From Candidatus Latescibacterota bacterium (GTDB lineage Bacteria; Latescibacterota; UBA2968): a stretch of DNA of 64,000 bases. The DNA lies in assembly GCA_965208125.1 (NCBI GenBank), contig OZ242320.1, positions 4,320,001 to 4,384,000 of the forward strand, in the 5' to 3' direction. The stretch's first letter is position 1; each line of letters starts with the position of its first letter. A program made the position numbers and the translations under genes. Positions 11,839 to 48,046 of this stretch are shown piece after piece. Under the pieces are notes generated by a model. That model was not told where the DNA came from, did no database searches, and worked only from the letters and a program-made list of their open reading frames with translations.

Positions 11839-11861
11839 AACTACGAGATTAACGAACAGTT
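11839..11861 (-). other. attI-like site, internal copy 3
   Basis: AACTACGAGATTAACGAACAGTT, 22/23 identical to 47970-47992; identity stops at minus-strand GTT. Confidence 0.7.
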
Positions 11862-11873
11862 TCAGCAAGTCGT

Positions 11874-12866
11874 TTACGTCGCTAAGATATTGTCGATTGT
11901 CTGGAGTTCGTCTTCGGTGAAATTCAGGTTGTCGAGGACACCGATGCTGTCCTTGATTTGTTCGGGTCGGCTGGCTCCGCAAAGCGCGGTCGTGACCGCC
12001 TCTTGACGGAGGACCCAGGCGATGGCCATCTGGGCAAGGGTCTGGCCTCGGGCGCAGGCGTGGTTGTTGAGCTTGCTTATTTTGTCGAGGAATTTTTTGT
12101 TGAGGCGATTTTTGAGCGGGTGACCCGGGCGAGCGGCGCGGGAGTCTGCGGGGATGCCGTCCAGGTATTTGTCGGTGAGCATGCCGCTGTTGAGGATGGA
12201 GAAGGCGATGCAGCCGATGCCTTCCTCCTGCAGGACGTCGAAGAGGCCATTGTTTTCGGGTTGTCGGGTAAGCAGATTGTATTTGGGCTGATGGATCAGG
12301 CAGGGCGTACCCAGGTCGCGCAGGATTTGCGCTGCCTCTTTGGTTCTGTCGGGCGGATAATTGGAGATGCCAACATAGAGGGCGCGACCCGAACGGACGG
12401 TGAAATCGAGGGCACCCATGGTTTCTGCAAGCGGCGTGTCGGGATCGGGGCGATGGTGGTAGAAGATATCGACATAATCTACCCCCAGGCGTTTGAGGCT
12501 TTGATCAAGGCTGGCAACGAGGTATTTCCGCGAGCCAAAATTGCCATAGGGTCCGGGCCACATATCAAATCCGGCCTTGGTGGAGATGATCAGTTCGTCC
12601 CGGTAGGGCGTCAGGTCGAGCTGGAGGATGCGGCCGAAGGTCTCTTCGGCAGAGCCATAGGGCGGTCCATAGTTGTTGGCCAAATCCAGATGCGTGATGC
12701 CGTGGTCAAAGGCGGTACGCACGATAGCACGCCCGGTTTCAAACACATCGACGCCGCCAAAATTATGCCACAGGCCGAGAGAGAGTAGGGGGAGTTGAAT
12801 ACCGCTGTTGCCGCACCGCCTATATGTCATGCTGTCGTAACGCGATTGGGACGGGAAGTCGGACAT
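11874..12866 (-). CDS. Aldo/keto reductase (YghZ/L-glyceraldehyde-3-phosphate reductase-like)
   Basis: LSLGLWHNFG, DLANNYGPPYGSAE and IHQPKY motifs. Confidence 0.9.
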   Translation of the reverse strand: MSDFPSQSRYDSMTYRRCGNSGIQLPLLSLGLWHNFGGVDVFETGRAIVRTAFDHGITHLDLANNYGPPYGSAEETFGRILQLDLTPYRDELIISTKAGFDMWPGPYGNFGSRKYLVASLDQSLKRLGVDYVDIFYHHRPDPDTPLAETMGALDFTVRSGRALYVGISNYPPDRTKEAAQILRDLGTPCLIHQPKYNLLTRQPENNGLFDVLQEEGIGCIAFSILNSGMLTDKYLDGIPADSRAARPGHPLKNRLNKKFLDKISKLNNHACARGQTLAQMAIAWVLRQEAVTTALCGASRPEQIKDSIGVLDNLNFTEDELQTIDNILAT

Positions 12867-12879
12867 GAAGGCTCCTTTG

Positions 12880-13629
12880 TTATATATCGAGTATCTTGAA
12901 ATGTCTGTAGAAGTGCTGAATGTCGCATTCAGGCTGCAGAACCTCGTAGGTAAAGCAACGTTCGCATTCTTCAGATGAGTCGGCTATGGCGATTGCGGCT
13001 TGGAACCGGGTAATCGCCTCAATATCCGGGCGGAACCCGCCGCGCAGAAATTGACCCCACAGTGCCCAGAACGCAAGCTCATATCCAACAGGCTTGGCCG
13101 AAGCGAGGTACTCCGGTGGAAACAGACGGCGATAGGCATCGATGTTGTAGAGCCACGAGCCTCCGCGCACAGTCTCTGCCTCCGGATGCTTCTCCCTTAC
13201 GTCTCGAAGAAGACCGGTTAGCTCACGACGTCTGACACCGACACGTTCAAGGCTCAGAGCGCCCTTCCCAGAAGTGTCGGCGTTACGAAAGTGAAGACGG
13301 ACTTTGGGTTCATTCCGGAAAGGGTAGCTGTACCAGAAGCACCCAAAGCCGTCCAGGACATTGATTGGCGGTTCATCTTTCTCGCGGTCGAGATAGTGGT
13401 CATAGGCCCAGCGATCCGGCTCCCTCGTATTTCGTAGTCCACTCAGAAAGCTCTGCCAGGCCTCACTTTCTTGCGCGGTCTCCTTCGTGACTCGAATGTT
13501 CAAAAGTGTCCGGAGCATTGTGCAGTCGATCAGGGTGTCTTCCAGGGGGCTGTGAGACAATTCGGACATACGTCTGGCAAAGGCCAGCTGGACCGAGATG
13601 AATTCATATGGTAGGTCGAGTTTGGGCAT
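12880..13629 (-). CDS. Hypothetical protein
   Basis: 249-aa ORF beginning just after an intact att hairpin. Confidence 0.7.
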   Translation of the reverse strand: MPKLDLPYEFISVQLAFARRMSELSHSPLEDTLIDCTMLRTLLNIRVTKETAQESEAWQSFLSGLRNTREPDRWAYDHYLDREKDEPPINVLDGFGCFWYSYPFRNEPKVRLHFRNADTSGKGALSLERVGVRRRELTGLLRDVREKHPEAETVRGGSWLYNIDAYRRLFPPEYLASAKPVGYELAFWALWGQFLRGGFRPDIEAITRFQAAIAIADSSEECERCFTYEVLQPECDIQHFYRHFKILDI

Positions 13630-13659
13630 TTACTATGTACCTGAAATTACCGGCATGGC

Positions 13660-13747
13660 ACTTAACGTTCTCGGCACCCACGAACCTGGCATAGCCAGGT
13701 TGAGCGAAAGCCCGAATGGTTTGAGGCTGTGGGTGCGAGTGTTAGCG
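13660..13747 (-). repeat. attC-like hairpin (intact)
   Basis: ACTTAAC GTT CTCGGCACCCAC...GTGGGTGCGAG T GTTAGCG, with internal AACCTGGC/GCCAGGTT hairpin. Confidence 0.85.
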
Positions 13748-13793
13748 GAAATCGCCTTTGATCCACAGTCTGTTCAACACTTGGGACCTGCCC

Positions 13794-14684
13794 TCACCGC
13801 ACCTGCCCCATAGGCCATTCCGAGGTCGGCCTACCTTGCCACGTTGATCGCCTGAAGAATCGCCCGCCTGGGGGGCGGCTAAACCAGCTACTAATTGCGA
13901 TTCCCCAAAAGTGCTCAAAGGATCTGTCTTTTAGATTCGCGTCACAGTATGCGTAGTGCGACAGGACCTCGTCGAGGAATGGCTCTCCGTATATCCAGAA
14001 CCCATAGAAATCCTTAGCGGGATCTGTGATTTCGACGTCTCCCCAGTCTATGATCCCAGTAAGTCTTCCGGTCAAGGGGTCATGATAGATATGTTTGTAC
14101 CAGAGGTCGTTGTGAGCCAGCACAGACTCGTATGAATGATCGATGCTTTCACTTCTTTCGATCCATGCTTCGAAAACATTGCGGACCTCACATTGAAGCT
14201 CGTCAGCCCGTTCAACGAATAACGCCTTCCACATCCTGCGACGCCTAACCGATGTGTCGCCCTCTTCTACGCCGAGGCTCCGTGCCTTCGCGACCGGGTA
14301 GCTGTGGAGTTCGCTGATGAAAACACCCAGCCTCTGAGCGGCCTCACTGCGGTTCGCCTTGGAAAGTCTCCAAAACCGCCACGGCGAGAGTCGAGTCCCC
14401 GAAATTGTGTGGTATCCCGCAAAATCTGACGCCTTCGGCACGAATGCATAGTCGGGAATGGGTATTGCCTTCAGGTTGCTTCTAAGGGCATCCAGGACGA
14501 TCCGCTCCCTCGTCAGATTTGTATCCACATCGTTCTCGAACCGGAAAGCGATGCCATTGTCCAACAGAATCATTACATGATCGGGATCGGCAATGGTCTG
14601 AACTCTTCGGTAATTTGCCCACATGAGATCTGGAAAGGCGTTTCTGATTCTCTCCAGGTAGTAGCTGGAAGCCAATGGGGGCAT
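13794..14684 (-). CDS. Aminoglycoside phosphotransferase-like protein, copy 1
   Basis: HNDLWYKHI and IIDWGD; near-identical to 33136-34026. Confidence 0.85.
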   Translation of the reverse strand: MPPLASSYYLERIRNAFPDLMWANYRRVQTIADPDHVMILLDNGIAFRFENDVDTNLTRERIVLDALRSNLKAIPIPDYAFVPKASDFAGYHTISGTRLSPWRFWRLSKANRSEAAQRLGVFISELHSYPVAKARSLGVEEGDTSVRRRRMWKALFVERADELQCEVRNVFEAWIERSESIDHSYESVLAHNDLWYKHIYHDPLTGRLTGIIDWGDVEITDPAKDFYGFWIYGEPFLDEVLSHYAYCDANLKDRSFEHFWGIAISSWFSRPPGGRFFRRSTWQGRPTSEWPMGQVR

Positions 14685-14702
14685 AGGGACCTGCGAAAAA
14701 AT

Positions 14703-14733
14703 AACATAGAGGGGAAACCTACACCCCTCTATG
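14703..14733. terminator. Putative intrinsic terminator
   Basis: AACATAGAGGGG...CCCCTCTATGTT perfect stem. Confidence 0.6.
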
Positions 14734-14790
14734 TTTCTGTTTTAATTTCTGGACGTCACTGTTCTCAGACGTTGTCCTTCAAGGAACGAG

Positions 14791-15100
14791 TTACCCATCT
14801 CTATCCAGGTGCGGTCGCACCTCTCGCTCCAGGCGGTCCGATAGCTCGTCCTCCGCTACATCCAGGGCATAGTCCATCTTGAATGCCCATCCAGAATTTG
14901 GGTGACATGTTGAAGTAGCGAGCGAGTCTCAGGGCTGTATCAGCAGTAATGCCTCGTTTTCCCAACACAATCTCGTTTATACGTCGGGGCGCCACCCCGA
15001 TGGAAAGCGCGAGGTGGTTTTGACTCAGATTCATCGGCTTGAGGAACTCTTCCAGCAACACTTCCCCGGGATGAATAGAAGCCAATTTCTGAGCACACAC
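14791..15100 (-). pseudogene. higA: HigA family antitoxin, frameshifted; no adjacent toxin
   Basis: [12 protein letters not shown]...[13 protein letters not shown]; removing one A near 14880 restores [20 protein letters not shown]. Confidence 0.8.
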
Positions 15101-15126
15101 AGGTCTGTCTCCTTAGAATCGTTTGC

Positions 15127-15603: not shown

Positions 15604-15630
15604 TGTGGCCGACAGCCTTTTTGCACAAAA

Positions 15631-16944: not shown

Positions 16945-16989
16945 TAAAACCTCCAGTATTAAAAAGTAATGAACTCAGCGAGTGAGGAA

Positions 16990-17850: not shown

Positions 17851-17946
17851 TCCTTCCTCCTATTGAGGTGCTTGATGATGGCCATTTCAAGTTCCGGGGT
17901 GAATGATTTCTCAGGCTTCATTCTCGCTCTCCTTCCAAAGCATCTT

Positions 17947-19371: not shown

Positions 19372-19494
19372 AAAAAGTGTGGCCTTTGTTTTTTAGATGT
19401 CTTTTTCGGGGACAACTGCGCCGTGTAGCACGAACCTTTAGTTCGGAAAATATGTGGGATGCTTGATGGATTGGCAATCTCTTTATGTTATCGC

Positions 19495-24066: not shown

Positions 24067-24085
24067 CTTCGGTCTCGTGAGACCT

Positions 24086-26782: not shown

Positions 26783-26845
26783 ACATAACGTTTCAGTACT
26801 CCCGAACCACGAAGCGGTTGGGGGACGGCGAGCATCGGGTTGGCT
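26783..26845 (-). repeat. attC-like site, degenerate
   Basis: ACATAACGTTTCAG...AACCACGAAGCGGTT...GTTGGCT; shares the inner hairpin of 47123-47206. Confidence 0.6.
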
Positions 26846-26857
26846 GATTCTCGCCTT

Positions 26858-27835
26858 TCAATCTATGCCTTCGATTGCAGCCTCGCCCATACGAATCGCC
26901 GCATCCGGGAGAGCGAGTATTCGGTCTTCCAATCCCCAGGTTCTCCGATTAGGCGACTTCGGCCCCCATTTCCGGTGGAGCTGGCAGAGGCGCTTGGCAT
27001 AGTAGGCCGCGAAGATGAAGGGGAGTGCGGTACGTTCATCATCTGAGGGAGGCCGGACTGAAAAGTACCCCTCCACGAACCGCTGCATTTCCTCATCTGT
27101 AAGCTGTCGCCCCACGGTCCCCATCAGCCATTGCATCCGGACCATCACTACATCCTCAAGCGCCGGAGCGAAGTGAGCCGAATTGAAGTCGGTGAATCGG
27201 ACCTCACCTGACGGGGAAGCAATCGTGTTCCAACTTCGCACATCTCTACGACAGAAGAGCCAACGAACGTCCATCTTGTTCGGCGTGTTATTCAACTGTG
27301 CTCGAAGCCGAGTGACCGCATCTGCCGCGGCCGACGAGAATGTCGTCCTCTCGCAATACTCGAGAGCATCAGAGATGTACCCTTGTGCATCTTTGACTTC
27401 TGAAAGGTAGGCTGGAAAGTCTTCGCTCGCATCGTGAACCCGTGCGAGAGCCTCCCCCACGTTGCGGAGAGTATCGACGCGGTCTACGACCTCTCCTTCC
27501 AAGAAGCTCTCCACCGAAATCACCAGGTCTCGAACGGACTTGTAGAGGCTACCATCCGTGGTTGGACGGATGTCAGGACACGGCGCGCCGCGATCGGCAA
27601 GGTGTCGCACAAACTCCACAATGGTTTTGGGATGGGTCGAGCCGTCCCATCCCGGATTCACGCGGAACACAACGCGTCCGTCCCGCAGACTATCACAAAA
27701 GAAGACGCACCGCGAATTCGCCCTGCGGACGCTGGTTACTTCCAGATCCCAGAATCGCTTGCAGAGATCCATAATTTCTGGCTGATCAGGCAGCGGGCCC
27801 GTTTCGTCTCTATATCTGGGATAGCGTGGTTCCAT
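26858..27835 (-). CDS. Phosphotransferase (APH-like)
   Basis: RRDVRSWN and FTDFN; start placed at MEPRYP. Confidence 0.75.
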   Translation of the reverse strand: MEPRYPRYRDETGPLPDQPEIMDLCKRFWDLEVTSVRRANSRCVFFCDSLRDGRVVFRVNPGWDGSTHPKTIVEFVRHLADRGAPCPDIRPTTDGSLYKSVRDLVISVESFLEGEVVDRVDTLRNVGEALARVHDASEDFPAYLSEVKDAQGYISDALEYCERTTFSSAAADAVTRLRAQLNNTPNKMDVRWLFCRRDVRSWNTIASPSGEVRFTDFNSAHFAPALEDVVMVRMQWLMGTVGRQLTDEEMQRFVEGYFSVRPPSDDERTALPFIFAAYYAKRLCQLHRKWGPKSPNRRTWGLEDRILALPDAAIRMGEAAIEGID

Positions 27836-33062: not shown

Positions 33063-33135
33063 ATTTATAAAATACCGCAATTAGCTTGGAAAGGGTAGAG
33101 TAAATTTGTTTGTCTACCAAACTTGGGATCTGCCA

Positions 33136-34026
33136 TCAACGCACCTGCCCCATAGGCCATTCCGAGGTCGGCCTACCTTGCCACGTTGATCGCCTGAAGA
33201 ATCGCCCGCCTGGGGGGCGGCTAAACCAGCTACTAATTGCGATTCCCCAAAAGTGCTCAAAGGACCTGTCTTTTAGATTTGCGTCACAGTATGCGTAGTG
33301 CGACAAGACCTCGTCGAGGAATGACTCTCCGTATATCCAGAACCCATAGAAATCCTTAGCGGGATCTGTGATTTCGACGTCTCCCCAGTCTATGATCCCA
33401 GTAAGTCTTCCGGTCAAGGGGTCATGATAGATGTGTTTGTACCAGAGGTCGTTGTGAGCCAGCACAGACTCGTATGAATGATCGATGCTTTCACTTCTTT
33501 CGATCCATGCTTCGAAAACATTGCGGACCTCACATTGAAGCTCGTCAGCCCGTTCAACGAATAACGCCTTCCACATCCTGCGACGCCTAACCGATGTGTC
33601 GCCCTCTTCTACGCCGAGGCTCCGTGCCTTCGCGACCGGGTAGCTGTGGAGTTCGCTGATGAAAACACCCAGCCTCTGAGCGGCCTCACTGCGGTTCGCC
33701 TTGGAAAGTCTCCAAAACCGCCACGGCGAGAGTCGAGTCCCCGAAATTGTGTGGTATCCCGCAAAATCTGACGCCTTCGGCACGAATGCATAGTCGGGAA
33801 TGGGTATTGCCTTCAGGTTGCTTCTAAGGGCATCCAGGACGGTCCGCTCCCTCGTCAGATTTGTATCCACATCGTTCTCGAACCGGAAAGCGATGCCATT
33901 GTCCAACAGAATCATTACATGATCGGGATCGGCAATGGTCTGAACTCTTCGGTAATTTGCCCACATGAGATCTGGAAAGGCGTTTCTGATTCTCTCCAGG
34001 TAGTAGCTGGAAGCCAATGGGGGCAT
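33136..34026 (-). CDS. Aminoglycoside phosphotransferase-like protein, copy 2
   Basis: 33121-34036 near-identical to 13779-14694. Confidence 0.85.
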   Translation of the reverse strand: MPPLASSYYLERIRNAFPDLMWANYRRVQTIADPDHVMILLDNGIAFRFENDVDTNLTRERTVLDALRSNLKAIPIPDYAFVPKASDFAGYHTISGTRLSPWRFWRLSKANRSEAAQRLGVFISELHSYPVAKARSLGVEEGDTSVRRRRMWKALFVERADELQCEVRNVFEAWIERSESIDHSYESVLAHNDLWYKHIYHDPLTGRLTGIIDWGDVEITDPAKDFYGFWIYGESFLDEVLSHYAYCDANLKDRSFEHFWGIAISSWFSRPPGGRFFRRSTWQGRPTSEWPMGQVR

Positions 34027-34062
34027 GGGGACCTGCCAAAGAGGATTAATTGTCGCGATTTC

Positions 34063-34117
34063 CGCTAACTGTTGGGTGAAGCCCGAATGGCCGAAGCCGT
34101 GTACAGTCGTGTTATGC
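34063..34117 (-). repeat. attC-like site, internally deleted
   Basis: CGCTAAC...AAGCCCGAATGG...CGTGTTATGC. Confidence 0.65.
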
Positions 34118-34196
34118 GGTGTGCTCACTTCATTACGGCAGGAGAAACTCTGTGGAAAGGTTCCGCAAGCCTGGAGTTAGTGACCGTGCTCCCTCC

Positions 34197-35255: not shown

Positions 35256-36587
35256 TCAATATTTTAGTTTTATTATTTTATTTGCTTCTCGGAGACCGCT
35301 TAAAAAAGCTCCGTGTACCGTTCCTCTATAGTCAAAAATAGTGTGTTCACCAGCAAAAAATACTTTATTGCCAATGGGTTCTTCAAACACCTCAAAATCT
35401 GAACTTCTAGAACCACTAGCAACAAATGAGTAGGCGCCGAATGAATACGGGTTTTCGTTCCATTTTGTTCTTAACATATGAGTTGGGTGAGGTATGTCGT
35501 TTCCATAAATCCTTTTAAGATGTAACATAATTTCTTTGATAATCTGTTCATTTGTCATTGTCTCGGTTTGTTTAGAGTAGTCACCAAAAGCAAAAGTCAT
35601 TAACGCATTGGCATCTGCAAACTTTTTTACATTTAAGAAGTAATTGAATTTTCCTTTTGTCTCGGGTGTATAGCCAATATATTGTAGATCTTCTTCCCAA
35701 AATATATCGTCCCAGACTAAAAGAAATTTATTTACTGTACCCATCTTCAGGTTGTTGATGGCGTTTTGGATTTTATTGGGTAAGGCTGGCGTGAATTGTA
35801 TTACGTTCTTCTTGAGTACACCTAAAGGCACAGTAACCAAAACTATATCTGCTGTATAGTTACCATTAGTTGTTTGAATAGAAACCTTATCTTTAGAATA
35901 GTCAATATCTACGACTTTTGTGTTTAATCGAACATCAATGTCCTGGGCTAAATAATTGGTTATATGGTCGTAACCATTTGTAATGATAACATCTTTGCCC
36001 TTAAAAGCTTCATCATCATCAAAATCTAATGAGGACAGCTTGTAAATATCTCCTCCAGTATCAAATTCTAAAAAGGCTGATAGCATATAAGTCCAAAGTC
36101 TTTGATTTTTGTATTGAGGATATTTTTTATAGAAAATATCTGCAAAACTCTGGTCTCTATTACCTGCCAAATTCTCTAAAATGTCGTTGTACTTATCTTC
36201 TGCTGCGTCTAGTTTTTTAGGGATATATTCAGAACCATCTATGTCAAAAACTTTAACATGGAAATCGTCTGTAAAAAAGGTTTTAGCTCCTGACGCATTT
36301 GCAAGTTTAGTAATAGGGTTTTTTATAGGACCGTGAATCCAACTTGCTCCTTCGTCAAAGGCTACTCCAAGACTTCTATCTGTTTTTAATCGTCCGCCAA
36401 CTTTCTCTTGTGCTTCTAAAACAATAGGATTAAATCCATTTTTCTTTAGTTGATTAGCAGCACTTAAACCTGAAATTCCCGCTCCAATGATGATGACGTT
36501 CTTTTTGACCTGTTTGTTTCTATTTGGACTTAGAACGCTACAGGACGAAATGGCAAAAATAAAGAAAAGTAATAATATTTTTTTCAT
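35256..36587 (-). CDS. Flavin monoamine oxidase family protein (putative lipoprotein)
   Basis: MKKILLLFFIFAISSC, GAGISG, GGR, GASWIHG and FAGEHT; strongly AT-rich. Confidence 0.9.
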   Translation of the reverse strand: MKKILLLFFIFAISSCSVLSPNRNKQVKKNVIIIGAGISGLSAANQLKKNGFNPIVLEAQEKVGGRLKTDRSLGVAFDEGASWIHGPIKNPITKLANASGAKTFFTDDFHVKVFDIDGSEYIPKKLDAAEDKYNDILENLAGNRDQSFADIFYKKYPQYKNQRLWTYMLSAFLEFDTGGDIYKLSSLDFDDDEAFKGKDVIITNGYDHITNYLAQDIDVRLNTKVVDIDYSKDKVSIQTTNGNYTADIVLVTVPLGVLKKNVIQFTPALPNKIQNAINNLKMGTVNKFLLVWDDIFWEEDLQYIGYTPETKGKFNYFLNVKKFADANALMTFAFGDYSKQTETMTNEQIIKEIMLHLKRIYGNDIPHPTHMLRTKWNENPYSFGAYSFVASGSRSSDFEVFEEPIGNKVFFAGEHTIFDYRGTVHGAFLSGLREANKIIKLKY

Positions 36588-36610
36588 AGAGATTGGTCCT
36601 AATGGCACAC

Positions 36611-36687
36611 AACTACGAGATTGACGAACAGTTACGATAATACGTACCAAATCTATGTATCTTCGACCTTGCGGAAATTCTTCCCTT
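36611..36687 (-). other. attI-like region, internal copy 2
   Basis: 67/77 identical to 47970-48046; identity stops at minus-strand GTT. Confidence 0.8.
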
Positions 36688-36711
36688 TATTTCGTGCTTC
36701 TAACCATTGCT

Positions 36712-37692
36712 TTAGCGAACGTTGGCTCTCTCCTGAAGGTCGGCCAGTCCATATATTTCCGACGCTAATATCCTCATTTTGCATGGGTTTGACTGCAAAT
36801 CTCGGTGGAAGTCGTAGGTCCAGTCAACGGGCCGGAATCCCATGTTCGCGTACAGTGAAAGGGCTGGACCGTTGTCTTCGTTCGTACCGATGATCGCGCT
36901 CCGGTATCCTAATTGCGAGGCGTCGTACAGGCCGCGCTGAAGTGTCAACCATCCGTAGCCCTTCCCCTGTTCTGCCTCCACAACGTCAACATCATTCACG
37001 CAGAGCCAAGGACCCTCTCCCTTCTTTACTTCAGATGTCCTGAATGGGCGGCTGAAGTACACACCAACCTCACTGGCGTTCAGAAACGATGTAACACGAA
37101 GTGCAGGCATGTCGCCATCCTCGGGCACAGTTTCAGATCGGAAATCCAGAGGGCAGGACGCGGGAATCGGTTCCTGCGAGAAGCACGGCCACTCAAGTAT
37201 TACGTGACCTCTACTACGAACGTAGCCACGTGCGGCCAAGAGCCCCTGGACGTGAGCCAGGTGATTCGACAAGCTGGCCTGGGGAAGAGATCTGAAGAAG
37301 GGAAAGTTTCTCGAGAAGATCGTGACCGAGGACGCATTGTTCTCCAATGCGTGAGACTCAACTGCGTTGAGTAGCATCTGGCCAGCTCGTCGGCATCCAC
37401 GTTTGTATCCGAGGAATCGGACAATTCCTCTGCCTGTAGGCCTCATGGTCCCGGTGTGTCCTTGCCCTACTAAGGCAAGCCCAACAACCTCGGAACCTGA
37501 AACAGCGACCAGCTTCACTTCTGGCTGGATCCTTCTGTTCTTTCTTCTCTCGTTTCCTCCAACGGCGAAATCAATTTCGTCGGGAGTAAGGGACCTGCAA
37601 TGCGGAACTCCACCAACCAGATCTGCGAAGAACGTAGCCAGGTCCCTCGCCATACTGCTGGTGTAGTTGACGGTTTCAATTCTGCGATTCAT
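36712..37692 (-). CDS. GNAT family protein (likely tandem GNAT)
   Basis: EQGKGYG and NGPALSLYANMGF. Confidence 0.75.
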   Translation of the reverse strand: MNRRIETVNYTSSMARDLATFFADLVGGVPHCRSLTPDEIDFAVGGNERRKNRRIQPEVKLVAVSGSEVVGLALVGQGHTGTMRPTGRGIVRFLGYKRGCRRAGQMLLNAVESHALENNASSVTIFSRNFPFFRSLPQASLSNHLAHVQGLLAARGYVRSRGHVILEWPCFSQEPIPASCPLDFRSETVPEDGDMPALRVTSFLNASEVGVYFSRPFRTSEVKKGEGPWLCVNDVDVVEAEQGKGYGWLTLQRGLYDASQLGYRSAIIGTNEDNGPALSLYANMGFRPVDWTYDFHRDLQSNPCKMRILASEIYGLADLQERANVR

Positions 37693-39831: not shown

Positions 39832-39888
39832 GAGCTTGTTGGCTCGATTACATAAACACCAGAACGGATGCAGTTCTATGTGGACCTG

Positions 39889-40674
39889 TTAAGCACCCTG
39901 TGGGGGACCGGATATAGGTTTTCCCAACCTCATGAGTAATAACATCGGCCAACCAAGATCAAAATCTTCTGGAAACTCAGTCCAGTACTCCTTCGCTCTG
40001 GGCGACTTCTCAAGCAGGCATTCGTCAGCAAGATGCTCCTCAATGCGATCAATCTGAAGTTGGGCCTTCAAGGCTGCATTGACATAGTCCGCGGTCTGGT
40101 GGTGATAGCCCTCGACGTTAACCTTTTGGCCTGTCTTCATATCAGTGAAGCGAGCCTGTAGGCGACGGAGACGCATCGCTGGGTGGAGTTCTGAGATGAG
40201 AATGAAACCTCCTGGCCGACAGATCCTCGCCATTTCTCCGATTACTGGATCCAAACCAGAAATGTGCTCCAGGACGAGGCAGCATAGGACGCGATCAAAG
40301 GTATCATTCTCGAATGGGAGGCGCTCTGTCAGATCATGGGTAACGAATCGCACATCGTGGTCTTTCGTCTTCTCAATAGCTTGCGCCATCATTTCTGGAG
40401 CGAAGTCAATTGCGGTCACCCTGGCACCTGCTTCTGACAGATAGAGGGTATGACGTCCCGTACCGCAGCCGATATCAGCGACGCTGAGTTCTTGGACATT
40501 CCCCAACAGGGATCGCAATAGCGGCTCTTCCAAAATAATCAAGGAATTGTCCTGCGTATCGTACGTCTCAGACCAACGAGCGTAGCCTTGCCGGACAGGT
40601 ACGGTTTCAAGATCGGCCCCAGACCCGTCATTCATGTTGTATGCCTCCAGGATAATGCCGGTGGTCCTGCCCAA
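39889..40674 (-). CDS. Class I SAM-dependent methyltransferase
   Basis: DIGCGTG and LPFENDTFD; stop codon overlaps R''-like GCTTAAC. Confidence 0.9.
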   Translation of the reverse strand: MGRTTGIILEAYNMNDGSGADLETVPVRQGYARWSETYDTQDNSLIILEEPLLRSLLGNVQELSVADIGCGTGRHTLYLSEAGARVTAIDFAPEMMAQAIEKTKDHDVRFVTHDLTERLPFENDTFDRVLCCLVLEHISGLDPVIGEMARICRPGGFILISELHPAMRLRRLQARFTDMKTGQKVNVEGYHHQTADYVNAALKAQLQIDRIEEHLADECLLEKSPRAKEYWTEFPEDFDLGWPMLLLMRLGKPISGPPQGA

Positions 40675-40692
40675 AGTTAATACTCAAATAAG

Positions 40693-40823
40693 ATAGCCCC
40701 AACAGCATCGAGTCGATATTGGTTGCCATCGTATGCAATCGTCGTAACGGAGCATTCACGCATTACTTCACCACTGTATGGGTCATTGCAGAATTCCGGA
40801 CTGATGCGACTCAGTTCTTCAGA
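40693..40823 (-). repeat. Identical 131-bp copy of 27889-28019 (histidine phosphatase 3' region)
   Basis: Direct sequence match. Confidence 0.95.
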
Positions 40824-40856
40824 TTCGCCCCCGACTGAACACAACTCGGTGGAAAA

Positions 40857-41576
40857 TCATGACTTACTCGATTTGTCCCTCTGCGCCAACATCTGTTGTC
40901 TAACTTTTCTCTTTAAGTTCTTCTTTCTCTCCCGCTCTTCCTTTTTTTTCTGCCGTTCCTCTCTTTTTGTTTTGCGATGCTGTTGGCTTTTTTTAACCTT
41001 CTGAATCCATTCTACTCTATTGGCTAAGATTTCAGGGCTACTCTTTTCGCCATATGAAAGCTTGTTTAGAAAATCTATAATTTCATGCTGTCTTCCTCCA
41101 ATTAAATCTGTGGCTCCAGGCCGAGTCAGTCCTCCCTCAAGTTCCCAATGATACCTATGAATCAAGGTGTCTATGAGGACCATCTTCTCTTTTGGAGATC
41201 TCGCAGTCTGGTATTTTTGGAGGAACTCTTGGAGAAAGACCGTGAGACCAGAGGCAGCAAGATGCTTACCTTGTTTGGCTTTATGATACTCGCCCCAGGT
41301 GAGTTCCCAGTTGCACGATTCGCATCTCAGAATCGTATCCTTCATACCGTCGTGGTCTATCTGGCGATCACATAATGGACATCTTGCTCGTCCAGTACTG
41401 GCTTCTCGTGCTTTGAAAATGCTTTCGATACGAGCGAAGAGTCCAATCCCCACGTCTTCAATAAGCTCTTCGTCTACTATGCCCTGTGCATCAGTTGCAT
41501 AAAGGCGGGCTATTTTTTCTCTTGGAACTCGACTTGCCCAAGTTGGCCTGTCGTGTCTTGGTTTCGGGTTGCTCAT
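40857..41576 (-). CDS. Hypothetical protein with CxxC/CxxC zinc ribbon
   Basis: CPLC...CESC and a basic C-terminal tail. Confidence 0.7.
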   Translation of the reverse strand: MSNPKPRHDRPTWASRVPREKIARLYATDAQGIVDEELIEDVGIGLFARIESIFKAREASTGRARCPLCDRQIDHDGMKDTILRCESCNWELTWGEYHKAKQGKHLAASGLTVFLQEFLQKYQTARSPKEKMVLIDTLIHRYHWELEGGLTRPGATDLIGGRQHEIIDFLNKLSYGEKSSPEILANRVEWIQKVKKSQQHRKTKREERQKKKEERERKKNLKRKVRQQMLAQRDKSSKS

Positions 41577-41717
41577 GTATTCCTTAGAGATTTTTCAGGT
41601 TGGTCGATTTGGTGAAAACTCGAAGAATCAGAAAAGTTCGAGAATATGATGGGGAGTGGGTTCTGTTTTTGTTTTTGCACGCTAAAGGGTTTTTCTGGGT
41701 GGTGTTGGGGCGATTGC

Positions 41718-41857
41718 CCATAACGTCTCGCCGGTTGCCGATGTGGCCGTGATCAGTTAAACAAATCGCTGCTTTTACAATCAGGAAACACAAAGCTTCA
41801 CGAGCCATTTGGGTCGGAGCAACCGCAGGGAGCGGAGCCTGCAACTTGATGTTAACT
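41718..41857 (-). repeat. attC-like hairpin (long, ~140 bp)
   Basis: CCATAAC GTCTCGCCG GTTGC...GCAAC TTGAT GTTAACT. Confidence 0.75.
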
Positions 41858-41906
41858 GCTGTGGCGGTGCCGGGCTGCATTTGCCAGGACAGCAAATGCG
41901 GCTTCG

Positions 41907-44210
41907 TCAGGAACATCCGAGGTGTTCATCAAACCAAGCGACAATGCGGTTCCAGTAGTCCACTTGATTGGAGTATTCCCACTCACTTGGGGCATGTCTT
42001 TCGCCTTCGTACTTTGCATACACCACCTCTTTTCCAAGACGACGAAGGCCAACAAATATCTCATCGGCCAGAAACGAAGGTACCGCATAATCGACAGCTC
42101 CGTGGATAATAAAAAGTGGCGTTTGTACCCTATCGAGGTAGAATACGGGTGAATTCTCGATATACCGATCCCGAAATTGCCAGGGGGTGCCGCCCATTCT
42201 ACCTTGGCCTTCCTCTGCCCACGGGAGTCCATAAGTTGATCCATCTTTTCTCATTGCCCCATACGCGCCCAGTAAATTACCTTGCGCTGCACTGGCAACG
42301 GCTGCCTTAAAGAGTGTTGACTGAACAATCAACCCCAGTACGCAATATCCGCCATAGCTGTGACCCATTATCCCAAGACGATCAGGATCGGCAATCCCCA
42401 TCTCAACTGCTTTGTTTACACCCGGAAGCACGGTCTTGGCAAGGTCTTGCATCGGGGTTCCCACTTGAAGGGGCGCATCAGGAGAGAGAACTGCGTATCC
42501 TCGTGTGGCGAGCAGCTGTAGGTTATCAACTCCAGAGCCTTCTAGGCCGAACGTATTTAGGTTGTTCGACCCCCACCTGCCACCATACACGCGAACTACA
42601 AGTGGATACCGTCTTCCTGATTCATAGTTGGGCGGAAGCAACAACGCACCCCGTAGCCTCTGGCCATCGGCACTTCTCCATTCGATGAGACGACTCGCTC
42701 CCATGCTAGTCGCGTCAAGCAACGGATTAAGGCAAGTTAATCGTCTTGGATTCTGGAAATCAACGTCTGAGATCCAGATATCCTCGCTATGCTGAGCACC
42801 CTGTTTTATGTAAGCCACACGCTGCTCATCGTCAGAAATATCGATGGTATAGATGGTAGGGCGACCGCAATCCGCATCCTCTTCAAAAAGTCGTGTTAAC
42901 TGTCCCGTAGTCAGGTCAACTTTGTAGAATCCAATGTGTCTGGTTTCATCATCCCGTGTAATCAGAAACAGTGATTGACCTCCATCTGGCGACCAGAAGC
43001 GTCCCCCTTCCGCAGGAGAAACCACTTCCATTATTTCTCCACCTGAAATACGTGTAATATGCGTCGCCGTTGCATCAGGTACAGAGATGCGCCATAAAGC
43101 ATCAGAAACGAGGCAATAGAGGTTTTGTCCCTTGGAGTCCCATAAGGGAGCACGATAAACATGGTAAAAATTGGGATGTGGTTCCTTAGTCAAGTTTCGT
43201 GGCTCACCTCCGCTGGCAGACACAACGAAACAATCTCCGTCTGATATATAACTGAGTAGCTGCCCATCGGGAGACCAGCTGACGGAAATTGCGCGCTTTT
43301 GTTGAATATCTGTTGCAAAGACTTGAGAGCGAGTATCAGACAGAGAGACAACGATGAGTTTATTCTCCAAGATTGTAAATGCAATGTTCATACCATCTGG
43401 AGATATCCAGTAGCCGAGGACTTTCATTCGGTGTACGATACGTTGCACCTCTCCATTGGAAACATCGATCAAGGCAAGATCAGAAAGGTAAATATTCGTG
43501 ACCTCAATTTCTTGCATGTTGTCCTGCTGTTGTCCCACGTCATCTCCCTGCTTTGTGGCTTCGGGTGAGCGGTAGACAGCGACTGAGGGCTGATCTGCTT
43601 CTTTTTGATCATCCTTCGGCAATGGAGGACCCATAAAAAGACTGCAAGCTTCTTCAAGCGTCATCCTCTGCGGCAGGATTTTGCAGAGAATTTTCTGACT
43701 ATCCGGTGTCCAACGGACAATTTCGGAACCGTAATAAGGACGTACAATAGCGTCAGATACTTGCCTCAATGTATCGGATGACTTTTCCCACACCCAAAGC
43801 TGTGCTTGGCCATTCTGATCTGAATAAAAGGCAAGATAGTTTCCATTGGGGGACCATACCGGGCCCCAGCCATTACCTTTGCCTTCTGTCAAGCACCTTG
43901 ACTCACCAGATATAGAATTGGTGACCCAGACCTCACAACCAATCCTCAATCTTGGCATGCCTGAGCGACTAAAAAAGCTATATCTTTCATCGCCTGTTTT
44001 CTCCTTTTTTCGAGGGTTTTGGACTGTGTAGGCAACCCACTCGCCATCTGGAGAAAGGTCGATAGGTGTTTGTGGAGAAAAAGAGAGCGACGAAAGTACA
44101 TCTTCAGTTTCTATGTGCATCCATTTCTCCTTACAATAACTGATAGCCTCCACAACAGAGGTTTCTCTTTTGAGGAGGCGCCTTCCTGGCGCCTCCTGGT
44201 TTTCCGGCAC
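41907..44210 (-). CDS. S9 family peptidase (beta-propeller plus catalytic domain)
   Basis: WSPDG repeats, GHSYGG, HGAVD and EGERH motifs. Confidence 0.92.
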   Translation of the reverse strand: MPENQEAPGRRLLKRETSVVEAISYCKEKWMHIETEDVLSSLSFSPQTPIDLSPDGEWVAYTVQNPRKKEKTGDERYSFFSRSGMPRLRIGCEVWVTNSISGESRCLTEGKGNGWGPVWSPNGNYLAFYSDQNGQAQLWVWEKSSDTLRQVSDAIVRPYYGSEIVRWTPDSQKILCKILPQRMTLEEACSLFMGPPLPKDDQKEADQPSVAVYRSPEATKQGDDVGQQQDNMQEIEVTNIYLSDLALIDVSNGEVQRIVHRMKVLGYWISPDGMNIAFTILENKLIVVSLSDTRSQVFATDIQQKRAISVSWSPDGQLLSYISDGDCFVVSASGGEPRNLTKEPHPNFYHVYRAPLWDSKGQNLYCLVSDALWRISVPDATATHITRISGGEIMEVVSPAEGGRFWSPDGGQSLFLITRDDETRHIGFYKVDLTTGQLTRLFEEDADCGRPTIYTIDISDDEQRVAYIKQGAQHSEDIWISDVDFQNPRRLTCLNPLLDATSMGASRLIEWRSADGQRLRGALLLPPNYESGRRYPLVVRVYGGRWGSNNLNTFGLEGSGVDNLQLLATRGYAVLSPDAPLQVGTPMQDLAKTVLPGVNKAVEMGIADPDRLGIMGHSYGGYCVLGLIVQSTLFKAAVASAAQGNLLGAYGAMRKDGSTYGLPWAEEGQGRMGGTPWQFRDRYIENSPVFYLDRVQTPLFIIHGAVDYAVPSFLADEIFVGLRRLGKEVVYAKYEGERHAPSEWEYSNQVDYWNRIVAWFDEHLGCS

Positions 44211-44219
44211 CGTTATTGC

Positions 44220-44310
44220 AGTTAACGTTTCGCCGGTTTGCGAACCCGCGCAGCGGGTTGCCGAAGGCCAAGGCGCGAACTGCGCCGCAGCGCAAACCGT
44301 GCTGTTAGAG
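44220..44310 (-). repeat. attC-like hairpin (intact)
   Basis: AGTTAAC GTTTCGC CGGTTTGCG...CGCAAACCG TGCT GTTAGAG. Confidence 0.9.
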
Positions 44311-44351
44311 GACGTTGTGCCTTCCCTGACACCCGACTGACACCGAGATGC

Positions 44352-45173
44352 TCAGGGAATGAAGCACTCATCTCTCCCCCTATGGACAAAGATCGAGTTC
44401 TCGCCATGCTCGCCGAGTTGAAATATGCACTCGAATCCGTAGGATTGCAGCTCCGCTACAAGCCTCTTCCGATCCCGATAACACCTCTTGGGAATGTAGG
44501 CCTTGCCGTTAACGAGGAGCGTGTCACTGCAGGCTTCTACCTGCTCCAGCGCGGAAGGCGCCTTTTCCAGCGGCTCGTAGTAGTAGTCCGTTGACGGATC
44601 GTAAAGGCAATCGCCGTCATAGATATCATAAGTTTGGCCGGTGGAGCGATCCACGATTTTCCTATCTGGGCTATGTCGTCTGGACTCATAAAGCGAAGAA
44701 CTTACGAGGTAGTAGCCCTTGGGCTTCAGCCTAGCCTTGACGCTCTCGAAGACTGATTTGCGCTCTTCGGAGAAGACGATGTGGTTGATGCAGTAACTAT
44801 CAATTATCAAGTCAAACCGGCGCCCACTGTGTGGAATCGCCGTCACATCCACCACCTCATAAGTAATAGCCAAGCCTCGGACGGAAGCTATCTCCTTGGC
44901 CGTCCGGATCGCCTCCGGTATCACGTCATAACCCGTGACTTGGTAGCCCCGTTCTGCAAGAAACAGGGCGACCGGCCCCACGCCCGTCCCAAGTTCGAGC
45001 ACTACTGGATTCGGCGTCTTGAACCGGAGCTTTGGCAAGGCCATATCGAGGAATTCCCGAGACGAGAAATCGTGGAAATCGATGCCACCATACGTCTGCG
45101 TTGCCCAATCTTTCAGACCCATCTGGGTCATGGTCTCGTAACGCCGGGCATTTTCACGGAAATAGTATCTCAT
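44352..45173 (-). CDS. Class I SAM-dependent methyltransferase
   Basis: LELGTGVG and FDLIID motifs. Confidence 0.88.
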   Translation of the reverse strand: MRYYFRENARRYETMTQMGLKDWATQTYGGIDFHDFSSREFLDMALPKLRFKTPNPVVLELGTGVGPVALFLAERGYQVTGYDVIPEAIRTAKEIASVRGLAITYEVVDVTAIPHSGRRFDLIIDSYCINHIVFSEERKSVFESVKARLKPKGYYLVSSSLYESRRHSPDRKIVDRSTGQTYDIYDGDCLYDPSTDYYYEPLEKAPSALEQVEACSDTLLVNGKAYIPKRCYRDRKRLVAELQSYGFECIFQLGEHGENSIFVHRGRDECFIP

Positions 45174-45188
45174 TCACAATGTCCTCTA

Positions 45189-46125
45189 GGTAGTGTCTGA
45201 AAAGTCGTAAAGTATGTATTTTAGTTGCAGCATACGCCCAAGACAAAGGAGTATGATATGCAACGGAGATACGAACTGAGCGACGACGAATGGCATCTGA
45301 TCCAAGACTTGTTTCCACCGCCGAAGAAGATGGGTCGTCCCCGTCGAGATGATCGTACATTATTCAACGGGGTCTTCTGGATATTGTGTTCAGGTGCAGC
45401 TTGGCGCGACCTACCAGAACGATATGGTCCTTGGCAGACAGCCTTTGATCGATTCTGCAAATGGAAACAGGATGGCACTTTTGATCGCATTGTAGAAAAA
45501 TTGCATCTCAAATTGGATGAAGATGGCCTTTTAGATTATGCGACCTGGATGATGGATGCAACCCATATTCGAGCCACACAAGCCGCAGCAGGGGCGAAAA
45601 AAAAAGGGTAAAGAGGGTGAAGAAGAGCCCCCAGACCACGCTTTAGGACGCTCTCGTGGCGGTTTGACCACGAAAATCCATCTTCTTTGCGATGCAGTCG
45701 GGCATCCTTTAGCAGTGGACCTGCTCCCTGGCAACCAGTCAGAATCCACACAGGCTGAAAGGCTGTTATCAAAGGTACGCATACCCACCAAACAAGGACG
45801 TCCAAGAAACCGACCTCAGTATCTGGTGGCTGATAAATCTTATGATGTCTCACGCATCAGAGTCTATCTACGCAAACGGGGTATCAAGGCTGCTATCCCA
45901 AACAAGGCGATTCCTAAAGGCAGAAAACGGCGTAAGAGAGGACCAAGGCCAAAGTGTGATAAAAGATTATATGCCAAACGCAATATCGTAGAGCGTCTCT
46001 TTGGTTGGCTCAAACACTGCCGACGGATTGTGACTCGGTTTGAAAAAAAGGCGACTCATTTTCTCACTATGGTCAAGCTGGCCTGCATCAGACAACTCTT
46101 CAAAGCTTACTTTTCAGACACTACC
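45189..46125 (+). mobile_element. IS5 family insertion sequence (IS427/IS1031-like)
   Basis: Perfect 17-bp terminal IR GGTAGTGTCTGAAAAGT, TA duplication, two-ORF transposase. Confidence 0.95.
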
Positions 46126-46128
46126 TAA
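45258..46128 (+). CDS. IS5 transposase (OrfA + OrfB, -1 frameshift at the A9 run near 45600)
   Basis: WRDLPERYGPW, GRSRGGLTTKIH, ADKSYD and RNIVERLF motifs. Confidence 0.9.
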
Positions 46129-46220
46129 CGTTTCGCCGGTTTGCGAACCCCGAGCTTGTCGAGGGGTTGCCGAAGGCCAAGGCGCGACCAGCGCCGCAGC
46201 GCAACACCGTGCTGTTAGAC
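46126..46220 (-). repeat. attC-like hairpin whose R' core is split by the IS5
   Basis: Near-identical to 44220-44310; removing the IS restores GTCCTCTAAC. Confidence 0.9.
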
Positions 46221-47105
46221 GACGTGCCCTGCCATTCTCTCGAGTGAGTTCCGGGCTATCCGTTCTATCTCCTCCCCTGGTAACAAAGCAATGTCTTCGA
46301 AATCCACCACCTTTTCTAATGAGCGGATTACTTCCCGTCCAAGGAAGTGGCCACATCCACTGCGCCCCTTTATGCTGAACCAAGAGCCGAAGAATGAATT
46401 CACTGGCTGATCCCCATCTACCAGTTTCAGAAATTCGGTAGCAAGCCAGGCTTTGTTTGACGTGCACCAGGCGAGCCAATTCTCCTCGCCATATTGTTCA
46501 TGCCATGAATCGTCACCAAATACAATTTGCTCGCTACGGACCGCAAATCCCTCGCGATAAAGCTGCCAAAAAGGCCCCTTACCAGACGGTAAACCGCTTC
46601 GTTTGCGGCGCTGTATGTGGAGAAGATGGCCCAACTCGTGGGCAGTGAGGCCGGTCAGCGCCTTCTCTGTAGTGTAGCCACATTCAGCAATGTTCTCTAA
46701 TCCGAAGAGGCAAGCAGACCTCCCTCCAAGGCTAGTGGCCCATCCCGCGCCGCAACCAATTCCCACATAGATCATGAAGAGAACGTCAAAATCCAGATCA
46801 AGAGACTCCTGTGCCCTGCGGTATACTTTATCTATACAGGTTAACAATACAGCTCTCGCCTTTCCCATGGACGGCAACCGCTCCTGCAGATATGGGAAAA
46901 CTTTATCTTTTCCAATCGCGCGCCACCCCCCTTCCTGGCCAATGTAATCCTTTTGCTGTTTTTCGAGCAGTTCGGGCCACTGTGACATGTATTCAGTGGC
47001 CCAAAGCTCCAACTGCGTCTCAAGCGGTTTCACATGGACGGCCTCCCAAAAGGAGAGGAAAGCAGGAAACGTATCAACGATCTCGCACTGTGCCATCTTT
47101 AACAT
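46215..47105 (-). CDS. Putative zinc-dependent protease (HExxH)
   Basis: AHELGHLLH...EG; stop codon overlaps GTCTAAC. Confidence 0.65.
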   Translation of the reverse strand: MLKMAQCEIVDTFPAFLSFWEAVHVKPLETQLELWATEYMSQWPELLEKQQKDYIGQEGGWRAIGKDKVFPYLQERLPSMGKARAVLLTCIDKVYRRAQESLDLDFDVLFMIYVGIGCGAGWATSLGGRSACLFGLENIAECGYTTEKALTGLTAHELGHLLHIQRRKRSGLPSGKGPFWQLYREGFAVRSEQIVFGDDSWHEQYGEENWLAWCTSNKAWLATEFLKLVDGDQPVNSFFGSWFSIKGRSGCGHFLGREVIRSLEKVVDFEDIALLPGEEIERIARNSLERMAGHVV

Positions 47106-47122
47106 CTTGACCTCGGCATGTC

Positions 47123-47206
47123 GTCTAACGTTTTCGCCGTGTCCGAACCGCGAAGCGGTTGCGCGAAGGCGCCTCAGCGCCGAAGCCGGGCACGGACGTG
47201 TTACGC
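47123..47206 (-). repeat. attC-like hairpin (intact)
   Basis: GTCTAAC GTTTTCG CCGTGTCCG...CGGGCACGG ACGT GTTACGC. Confidence 0.9.
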
Positions 47207-47256
47207 GCTGTGCTGCTACTGGCCCTCACCAAGGCAGTTCCGTCAAGTCTCATACT

Positions 47257-47913
47257 TCACGAATACATCGACAGATCATCCCAGTCCGGCCATAGCGTCG
47301 GTCGAGTTAATTTCGGATCGGGATGCCAGTCTTCCCACTCGGCAGAGAACGGACCCAAGTTCTGCTCAATCTCCTCAACTGCCCGCTGGCCTTCTGCATA
47401 GATCGCCTCAGCATCTTCGGCACTCACTCTACCGTCCTGCATACACAGCTCGAGTTCGTCCTCGTTTTTCCACCTCCACTCTCGGTTTGGCTCGACGAGA
47501 ATATCAAGCTGATGGTCCCTCAAGTCGAAACCCAACCGTGTACGCGTCAGCTCGCTCTGCATGTTTACGTACCACCCTAAGAACTCACGCTCTCTTGACC
47601 ATCTGACCCACGTCGCCCGTTGCTGATGGGGGTTGACGACGATCAATAGCTCAGCCCATTGCCAAGTCGAATCCTGAAGCGCCCAGTTGTTCTTGGTCCA
47701 CCGACGTGGCGTCCCAGGCGTGTGGTTTATTAGCTCCGCCTTCTTTGAAGGTGTATTCAGTGGGAGCCAAAGGACGATCTGGATATCAGAATCTTCGACT
47801 ACGGTGACAGGCTTCACATCGATGATTTGCCCATGTTCATCAGTCTCTCGATAAAGAATGGATTCACCGCGGCTAAATATGTTGGCTCCTTGGTACATTT
47901 GGGACTTCCTCAC
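47257..47913 (-). CDS. DUF402-like protein (first cassette)
   Basis: GWYVN, DHQLDI and WKNEDEL motifs. Confidence 0.8.
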   Translation of the reverse strand: MRKSQMYQGANIFSRGESILYRETDEHGQIIDVKPVTVVEDSDIQIVLWLPLNTPSKKAELINHTPGTPRRWTKNNWALQDSTWQWAELLIVVNPHQQRATWVRWSREREFLGWYVNMQSELTRTRLGFDLRDHQLDILVEPNREWRWKNEDELELCMQDGRVSAEDAEAIYAEGQRAVEEIEQNLGPFSAEWEDWHPDPKLTRPTLWPDWDDLSMYS

Positions 47914-47969
47914 ACGGTACAGCCAGAAGATCCTATCAGCCTCGAAGTACCCGCAATGGCATGGCGCGT

Positions 47970-48046
47970 AACTACGGGATTAACGAACAGTTACGGTAAT
48001 ACATACCAAATCTATCTATCTCCGCACGTGCGGGAATTCTTCCCTT
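47970..48046 (-). other. Primary attI-like site at the 3' end of the recombinase gene
   Basis: The first cassette begins at minus-strand G/TTACGCGC (47972), with no attC-type hairpin upstream; the sequence recurs at 36611 and 11839. Confidence 0.75.

Follow-up and report, generated by a model that had tools for sequence, protein, structure and literature searches.

Three attI-like sites in one cassette array of a Candidatus Latescibacterota bacterium: probable serial modules of a chromosomal integron-like platform

Sedentary chromosomal integrons, among them the Vibrio superintegron and the Xanthomonas integrons with a decayed intI, occupy a fixed locus and carry many co-oriented attC sites of one family; their cassettes are duplicated and shuffled between species, G|TT is their crossover point, and inactivation of the integrase gene is common. 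Known integrons have, to our knowledge, one attI each, and the attI1 site of class 1 integrons consists of a simple site together with accessory direct repeats. The features of sedentary chromosomal integrons recur in the DNA described here, a stretch of 64,000 nucleotides (nt) from a Candidatus Latescibacterota bacterium (G000:C1:4320001-4384000, in a genome of 5,747,750 bp), which is referred to as the window throughout. A 23-mer, AACTACGRGATTRACGAACAGTT, occurs three times in this window, and we consider it likely that it is the crossover core of a double-strand attI site, and that the locus is a chromosomal integron-like platform in which three recombinase-attI-array modules follow one another in series.

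There are also features that set the locus apart from sedentary chromosomal integrons. Its recombinase lacks I2, the IntI-specific insertion of about 35 amino acids (aa) near patch III, bears a HARP-like N-terminal domain when intact, and has a gene that shares the orientation of the cassettes; furthermore, several attI lie in one array, the window holding three copies in place of the single attI of a platform. The inverted integron-integrases of the Treponema type differ in that they are IntI by the double-profile criterion, whereas the recombinase of this locus falls below the cut-off of 265 bits of the integron-integrase model TIGR02249. The IntegronFinder definition of a cluster of attC sites lacking integrases (CALIN), namely at least two attC and no IntI, does describe the locus, as no canonical IntI is present in the genome; however, a conserved recombinase and an attI stand at its head, so that it is not an orphan cluster. 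According to passages of Cury et al. (PMC4889954), it is an extra domain that defines IntI.

Exact matches to the 23-mer lie at 11839-11861, 36611-36633 and 47970-47992, all on the plus strand by pattern search of the window, as a preliminary description of this DNA had reported. The window contains zero additional matches at up to 3 mismatches (0.00 expected from 100 shuffles), and the whole genome contains the same three sites and no others at up to 5 substitutions. Orphan half-sites and left-flank fragments of attI were also sought genome-wide, and none was found outside the three copies. The copies and the genes that adjoin them are as follows.

47970..47992, minus strand: attI-like core copy 1, at the array head; in element orientation AACTGTTCGTTAATCCCGTAGTT, with the putative crossover at the terminal G|TT (plus-strand AAC, 47970-47972)
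47257..47913, minus strand: DUF402/FomD-like gene, first cassette after copy 1
36611..36687, minus strand: attI-like copy 2, composed of the 23-nt core (36611-36633) and 54 nt of attI left flank
36688..36777, minus strand: 3' remnant of a DUF2442-family gene (family search), abutting copy 2; the same gene end stands before attI-like copies in genomes G044, G045 and G039
35256..36588, minus strand: flavin amine oxidase gene, first gene after copy 2; ATG at 36588 as read from the sequence, 22 nt past GTT, the listed open reading frame (ORF) reaching 36650
11839..11861, minus strand: attI-like copy 3, core alone, directly after an aldo-keto reductase gene (11874-12866)
11335..11781, minus strand: Nudix hydrolase gene, first gene after copy 3

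Copies 1 and 2 have 67 of 77 nt in common (87.0%), and the ungapped match can be extended to 86 nt at 85%; copy 3 shares the 23-mer alone with the other two. The 77-bp match had been noticed earlier and described as reaching into the 3' tail of the recombinase gene. The match itself holds, and the label has to be corrected: the stretch is non-coding attI DNA, because the stop codon of the intact relative sits 130 nt before GTT, and it looks coding in the window because the recombinase gene there carries a 1-nt deletion. As had also been described, three distinct genes follow the copies on the minus strand, a DUF402/FomD-like gene, a flavin amine oxidase gene and a Nudix hydrolase gene.

The same border is found in related genomes. 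The 53 genomes of the order were surveyed for the 23-mer at up to 3 mismatches, and the pattern read backwards, used as control, gave 3 matches in all. The motif is present in 28 of the 53: in the window's genome and 14 of the 20 others of its genus, in 12 of the 15 genomes of a genus of the sister family, in one of two genomes of a further genus, and in none of the 15 genomes of the other eight. After 5 of 67 rows (one recurrent variant with 3 mismatches, standing alone) had been dropped, 19 of the 28 motif-bearing genomes still had two or more copies; in most cases these share a strand and span tens of kilobases. Over 51 distinct copies, the positions of the core are 90-100% conserved, except for two that vary mainly between two genera. 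Past GTT, conservation falls to 30-50%, apart from an A at +1 (46/51), a G at +5 (45/51) and an A at +8 (46/51). Because the same A...G..A signature stands after the GTT of attC sites (R' boxes), the sequence after each copy appears to be the start of a cassette. The observation that identity stops at GTT, made on three copies, holds in all 51.

The flanks of 33 copies, from 20 fetched regions and the window, were read in addition. To the right of GTT, each copy runs into a different sequence. To the left, each shares homology with DNA downstream of the intact recombinase gene, over very unequal lengths (23, 31, 31, 35, 46, 47, 48, 56, 56, 60, 60, 64, 70, 76, 77, 103, 115, 115, 117, 117, 120, 160, 162, 170, 179, 185 and 188 nt, and at least 273-283 nt in six), and the longer of these flanks enter remnants of the recombinase gene with 30 to 267 aligned residues. 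Such remnants of very different lengths before the internal copies of relatives support the proposal of the preliminary description that arrays whose recombinase genes had been lost came to stand in tandem.

That crossover takes place at GTT is indicated by cassettes that stand after an attI-like copy in one place and after an attC in another, in alignments that begin at the first base after GTT. The cassette following the attI-like copy at L039:15170 (genome G020) is 98% identical to one that an attC precedes at L039:3540; at L039:12727, the cassette past the copy shares 97.8% and 97.6% identity with post-attC cassettes in L040 (G020) and L044 (G011), respectively; and the one found past both L041:13591 and L045:4383 is 91-93% identical to post-attC cassettes in L039 and L038 (G009/G011 versus G020). 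Contigs of other public runs, which show presence only, were compared with the window as well. In five contigs of run X4 the match to the window begins at 47970, with other sequence before that point (divergence at 47969/47970); in one contig of another run, 44229, where the attC at 44220-44315 has its GTT end, is joined to the attI GTT; and contigs of X1 and X7 connect the attI GTT with 35256/35260, where the amine oxidase gene ends. On the left, the G034 orthologue of copy 3 also borders the aldo-keto reductase gene, and its attI flank is longer by 9 nt; on the right it runs into another sequence. Likewise, the left unit of copy 2 (the DUF2442-family 3' end) also stands before attI-like copies in G044 and G045, with other sequences on the right. 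Overall, the border in 51 copies, the cassettes shared by attI and attC, and the divergence of contigs at 47969/47970 agree with the insertion point that had been placed at the minus-strand GTT; on this comparative evidence, an attI lies beside the recombinase gene, and cassettes are joined to it at G|TT.

The attI-type region is seen at its full length at the array head.

47970..48099, minus strand: full attI-type region, 130 nt, from the ancestral recombinase stop codon TAG (48100-48102) to the crossover GTT

Within these 130 nt there are a perfect 18-nt palindrome, TCCCGAACATGTTCGGGA, at 48058-48075 and a hairpin at 48076-48094, and the word GTTCG is common to the palindrome, the core and attC sites. 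The two palindromes right after the ancestral stop are the sole part of the region that folds (z -2.1 to -2.8). The core with short flanks folds as a single strand no better than shuffles do (z 0.17 and 0.57) and is therefore taken to be a double-strand site and not an attC; an assignment of the 23-mer to attC was ruled out by this lack of a hairpin beyond shuffles together with a left flank homologous to recombinase-downstream DNA and not to attC. The region resembles attI1 in that the site is double-stranded, has its crossover core beside GTT and carries repeated words upstream, which by analogy may be extra sites for recombinase monomers. There is no sequence similarity to attI1, however, and the repeated word here is GTTCG, which is partly palindromic.

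The hexamers TATTAC and TATTAT, previously pointed out just upstream of copies 1 and 2, are present, and genes begin 22 to 57 nt past the GTT of the copies. This arrangement might suggest that the repeat serves regulation, as a promoter or operator placed before selected cassettes. A scan for sigma-70-like promoters, which does not cover the promoter types of this phylum, found none at any of the 3 copies, and copy 3 keeps just 23 nt and has no hexamer region, so that the internal promoters considered in the preliminary description gain no support here. In addition, a regulatory element would leave the sharp border at GTT and the exchange of cassettes unexplained, and we regard this explanation as very unlikely.

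The recombinase gene stands immediately before the attI-type region, in the same orientation, and overlaps it in its present, defective form.

48012..48842, minus strand: defective tyrosine recombinase gene, 276-aa ORF (PF00589)

Its closest homologue, P0001, has 376 aa and is 92% identical by BLASTP and 89% identical in the multiple alignment; homologues have ~370 aa. Two lesions are apparent in the gene of the window. The first is an in-frame loss of ~100 codons between two TTATGTGTATC repeats, which encode YVY (junction 48793-48803), and it takes away the HARP-like N-domain as well as some of the core-binding domain. The second is a 1-nt deletion near 48121-48124, where GAGGGAAAG of the intact gene of G038 has become GAGGAAAG; as a result, the frame is shifted across the normal TAG at 48100-48102, and the C-terminus overruns the end of the homologues. 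The extra base at 48121 is present in a contig from another run. Judging from its sequence, the recombinase gene of the window is very probably inactive, and a genome search found no second copy of it elsewhere.

In its relationships, the recombinase is IntI-like, yet it is not a canonical IntI, being without I2 and, when intact, carrying the HARP-like domain at its N-terminus. The nearest solved relative by sequence and by fold is the integron integrase IntI4 (2a3v; fold E 4e-15), ahead of XerA. TIGR02249 gives 196.9 bits for the gene of the window and 211.9 bits for the intact P0001, in a match of two stretches that skips profile positions 174-235, and no match above its cut-off, and hence no canonical IntI, was found genome-wide. 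In the alignment with IntI4, 26 residues of the query stand opposite 68, the IntI-specific insertion being missing, and relative to the canonical IntI of G003, a genome of the same order, the intact form is short by 30 + 10 residues at the place of I2.

The N-terminal ~75 residues of the intact recombinase are predicted to form a beta-beta-alpha-beta-beta-alpha domain (pLDDT 89.5). PF07443 (HARP) is matched by 15 of 25 diverse N-domains, with a best E of 3.8e-7, all below the curated cut-off. The top fold matches of the N-domain, the damage-recognition domain of XPB and the HARP domain of SMARCAL1, are weak (E 0.1-0.2, TM about 0.5); a Foldseek search gave no match at E <= 0.001, and a protein-atlas search gave only unnamed clusters, below 0.9. 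Two HARP-like N-domains (3727-3894 and 4243-4407), about 350 nt apart, are found at a Bacteroidales homologue locus, L085.

The catalytic region of the recombinase is Xer-like, and tandem arrays of sites are known for integrative mobile elements exploiting Xer (IMEX), as passages of Escudero et al. (PMC7790495) indicate. One might then think of the 23-mer as a dif-like Xer site with mobile elements integrated beside it. However, the arms of the 23-mer share 4 nt only (AACT/AGTT), whereas dif consists of two inverted 11-nt arms and a 6-nt spacer; the terminus by cumulative GC skew lies at ~4.95 Mb, about 0.6 Mb from the window (4.32-4.38 Mb); separate XerC/D-like genes exist elsewhere in the genome; and the site is missing from 25 of the 53 genomes of the order. 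A dif-like site is accordingly an extremely improbable explanation.

A search of 168 genomes of the phylum gave homologues of the recombinase at E <= 1e-60 in 25. In the two genera that bear the motif, G038 alone has the full 376 aa, the copy in G020 being without the N-domain. Paralogues of 314 aa that lack the N-domain occur in 6 copies in G002 (at L181 and five other places) and in 3 copies in G003, where one of them sits right after the canonical IntI. The L181 paralogue is followed by an ORF that was labelled, from reading the sequence, as a putative IS91-type transposase. Relatives of the recombinase at 45-49% identity link it to IS91-family-associated or integron-like tyrosine recombinases, and a published account (PMC8138268) describes an integron-like subgroup with members in which the insertion is not conserved; unlike the G002 paralogues, which have no N-domain and precede a putative IS91-type transposase ORF, the gene of the window is followed by attI and cassettes. 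A metagenome scan with the intact recombinase gave distant relatives only (26-33% identity), which were left unused.

Homologues of the phylum at 45-56% identity show (A)GTT|A and a cassette-like start 130-250 nt past the stop codon, and in several of these distant homologues the word GTTCG stands 10-11 nt before GTT. For other phyla, 79 loci were taken from among the matches listed, which include no close relatives. Downstream of these homologues, again among the matches listed, the pattern GTTC[GA]-N9-12-GTTA occurred in 1 of 71 cases versus 12 of 1384 control windows; with no enrichment, the exact architecture of the core is not general. An attC model of the order alone gave 10 matches in the 79 listed loci, 9 of them downstream of the recombinase and co-oriented with it, at loci labelled Latescibacterota, Gemmatimonadaceae, Ignavibacteriota, Bacteroidia, Flavobacterium and Spirochaetota. 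Four of those loci were read, and each has an (A)GTT|AT... junction after the gene that resembles the R' end of the nearby attC.

Turning to the array itself, nearly all genes from ~9 kb to 52 kb of the window are on the minus strand, and several intergenic stretches of that strand are classical attC sites, with ...YTAAC and AACGTTARRY ends and a stem with two inner hairpins. A covariance model was built from 30 sites of the window and its relatives with structure taken from single-sequence folds, after a first model, whose RNAalifold consensus had just 3 base pairs, had been discarded. The model finds 6 sites in the window at E <= 1e-3, all on the minus strand and with a three-way fold and TAAC/GTTA ends, and one weak match.

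47123..47211, minus strand: attC, 88.6 bits
46123..46225, minus strand: attC, 64.4 bits
44220..44315, minus strand: attC, 71.5 bits
41718..41862, minus strand: attC, long form, 24.5 bits, E 8e-4
34050-34122: attC, weak match of the covariance model
26783..26927, minus strand: attC, 25.6 bits, E 4e-4
13660..13752, minus strand: attC, 69.2 bits

A genome-wide nhmmer search for this attC family gave 7 matches, 6 of them in the window. Of the order's 53 genomes, 34 have this family and 2 have a canonical IntI. Matches to attC were found in 23 of the 28 motif-bearing genomes versus 11 of the 25 without the motif, related genomes not being independent in this comparison. The filters of this census were strict and weak sites were lost (G038 has 0 in the census and three in the regional search). 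In 20 related regions, all 54 of 54 attC matches have the orientation of the attI-like copies at the same locus.

This last result bears on another explanation, in which the copies are att cores of tandem genomic islands with a phage-type integrase, and the attC sites belong to an unrelated neighbouring CALIN. Direct core repeats beside an integrase gene and accretion in tandem are typical of islands, and the large genes between copies 2 and 3 are not cassette-like. However, the integrase gene lies outside, upstream of the first site, with no core beyond it; the right border of the copies meets cassette starts that elsewhere follow attC; the co-oriented attC are interleaved with the copies; and the recombinase is IntI/Xer-like and not of the lambda type. 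Tandem islands are thus a highly improbable origin of the locus.

Several other observations were made on the content of the array. An IS4/IS5-family element (45187-46128, plus strand) with overlapping DUF4096 and DDE transposase ORFs is inserted beside the attC at 46123-46225; its contig depth in run X1 is 916-1606 versus about 80 for neighbouring shared cassettes, and it is therefore multicopy in the X1 sample. Two duplications lie within the array, 13779-14078 matching 33121-33420 at 98% at the ends of two APH-family phosphotransferase genes, and 27889-28019 being 100% identical to 40693-40823. A C-rich leader, GTTAnnnGCAA..GC..CCCCACC(A)CCCC..AGAAAA, opens many unrelated cassettes of the phylum, examples being found in the window at about 41660-41720 (after the attC at 41718-41862) and in L158, L160, L186 and L046. 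The stretch 14685-15126 (minus strand), listed as intergenic, contains a putative HigA/VapI-like helix-turn-helix antitoxin frame as read from the sequence.

Taken as serial modules, the locus may be pictured as follows. In an intact platform the 376-aa recombinase gene comes first, then a conserved, non-coding stretch of 130 nt with the core ...GTTCG-N11-G|TT at its end, and then co-oriented cassettes bounded by attC. The GTTCG palindromes are putative accessory binding sites, and cassettes would be joined at G|TT by attI x attC recombination, a reaction that the recombinase of this locus would itself catalyse if the comparisons made from sequence are a guide. The head module would have kept its recombinase gene, now broken twice, and the internal modules would have lost theirs by deletion, along with the attI left flank, which is mostly gone in copy 2 and wholly gone in copy 3, so that the core was left. 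Stacking may have come about when a recombinase-attI-cassette block, circular or incoming, was integrated, or through replacement in homologous recombination, with deletions afterwards. The internal copies of this genome would now be relics.

The internal copies could alternatively be maintained as working entry or exchange sites, at which attI x attI recombination, a double-strand reaction that a recombinase lacking I2 would favour, excises and re-inserts whole blocks lying between attI copies (11.4 kb and 24.8 kb) as super-cassettes, any copy being open to the entry of cassettes. Consistent with this, the three cores are intact and in direct orientation, multiple copies are usual in the order, and orthologous internal copies carry different right cassettes between species. 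It also fits what passages of Escudero et al. state, namely that IntI retains ancestral double-strand attI x attI activity (PMC4792948) and that I2, proposed to have been gained by a Xer-like ancestor, was an innovation toward single-strand recombination (PMC7790495), the recombinase of this locus being without I2. A search with the 107-nt left flank without the core, however, gave 22 matches in 14 of the 21 genomes of the genus, of which 18 have an intact core, one in G047 has a core that breaks off after 14 nt, one in G039 has an indel of 1 nt, and two, in G050 and G048, are nothing more than left fragments. Cores decay too, which favours relics; in addition, copy 3 has no accessory flank at all, and the recombinase, the sole copy in the genome, is broken. 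Working internal sites are for these reasons an unlikely alternative.

The reading as serial modules has to be weighed against several observations that speak against it. Just 6 to 8 attC sites are recognisable across 36 kb, and the 24.7 kb between copies 2 and 3 have few attC and include large genes (sulfatase, GH4, FtsX permease), so that much of this stretch may not be cassettes in the strict sense. No shared motif was seen at the left junctions of the internal copies among the 33 copies read, so that these junctions give no hint of how the modules were stacked. Of the 36 genomes in the two genera that bear the motif, only one, G038, has an intact recombinase, which makes present-day activity doubtful in most of them. 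A canonical IntI acting in trans in the past may have been another source of the joining, and homologous recombination between attI copies could explain some of the cases in which the left side is the same and the right side different.

At its head, the array adjoins a conserved chromosomal flank.

49102..49851, minus strand: UVR-motif protein gene, conserved chromosomal flank, adjoining the array head

Synteny with four species of the genus (G038, G044, G045 and G034) stops at ~49092-49095, where the contigs of other runs also show a joint (40652-49095), and this is the outer border of the array locus. At the head position, G038 carries the intact recombinase gene, and G044 and G045 carry a DUF4160-DUF2442 pair and a 56-nt attI remnant. 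The DUF4160-DUF2442 pair recurs beside attI-like copies in both genera, at L047 6562-7105 (G044) and at L039 14514-15021 (G020). Outside the array, tandem repeats of ~135 nt, 62-89% identical, lie inside a coding region at 55214-55994 (plus strand).

Finally, the question arises of whether this locus is representative of a wider group. In the literature searched, with subscription journals mostly outside it, we found no prior description of several attI in one array, nor of recombinases without I2 and with a HARP domain heading attC arrays. It is conceivable, though we hold it only tentatively, that an unrecognised and widespread class exists here, with an integrase that has lost I2 or never possessed it and bears in its stead a HARP-like domain, a kind of domain that recognises DNA junctions, a gene co-oriented with the cassettes, a long, modular, double-strand attI that can occur in many copies per array, and both whole attI-bounded blocks and single attC cassettes as units of exchange. 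If so, this class would be a living example of the Xer-like double-strand stage that has been proposed for the origin of IntI, or else an independent solution to attC recombination.

Integron biology has been built on one integrase family defined by I2 and on one attI per platform, other arrays being set aside as CALINs, and current tools would class the arrays of this order as orphan CALINs. In terms of this one genome the gain is more modest, in that three former cassette entry points are mapped in a platform that is probably inactive in cis. If the recombinase proves to be a working enzyme, however, the definition by which integrons are found would miss a class, many CALINs would be explained, and the evolution of single-strand attC recombination from Xer-like double-strand recombination would become testable with a natural protein.

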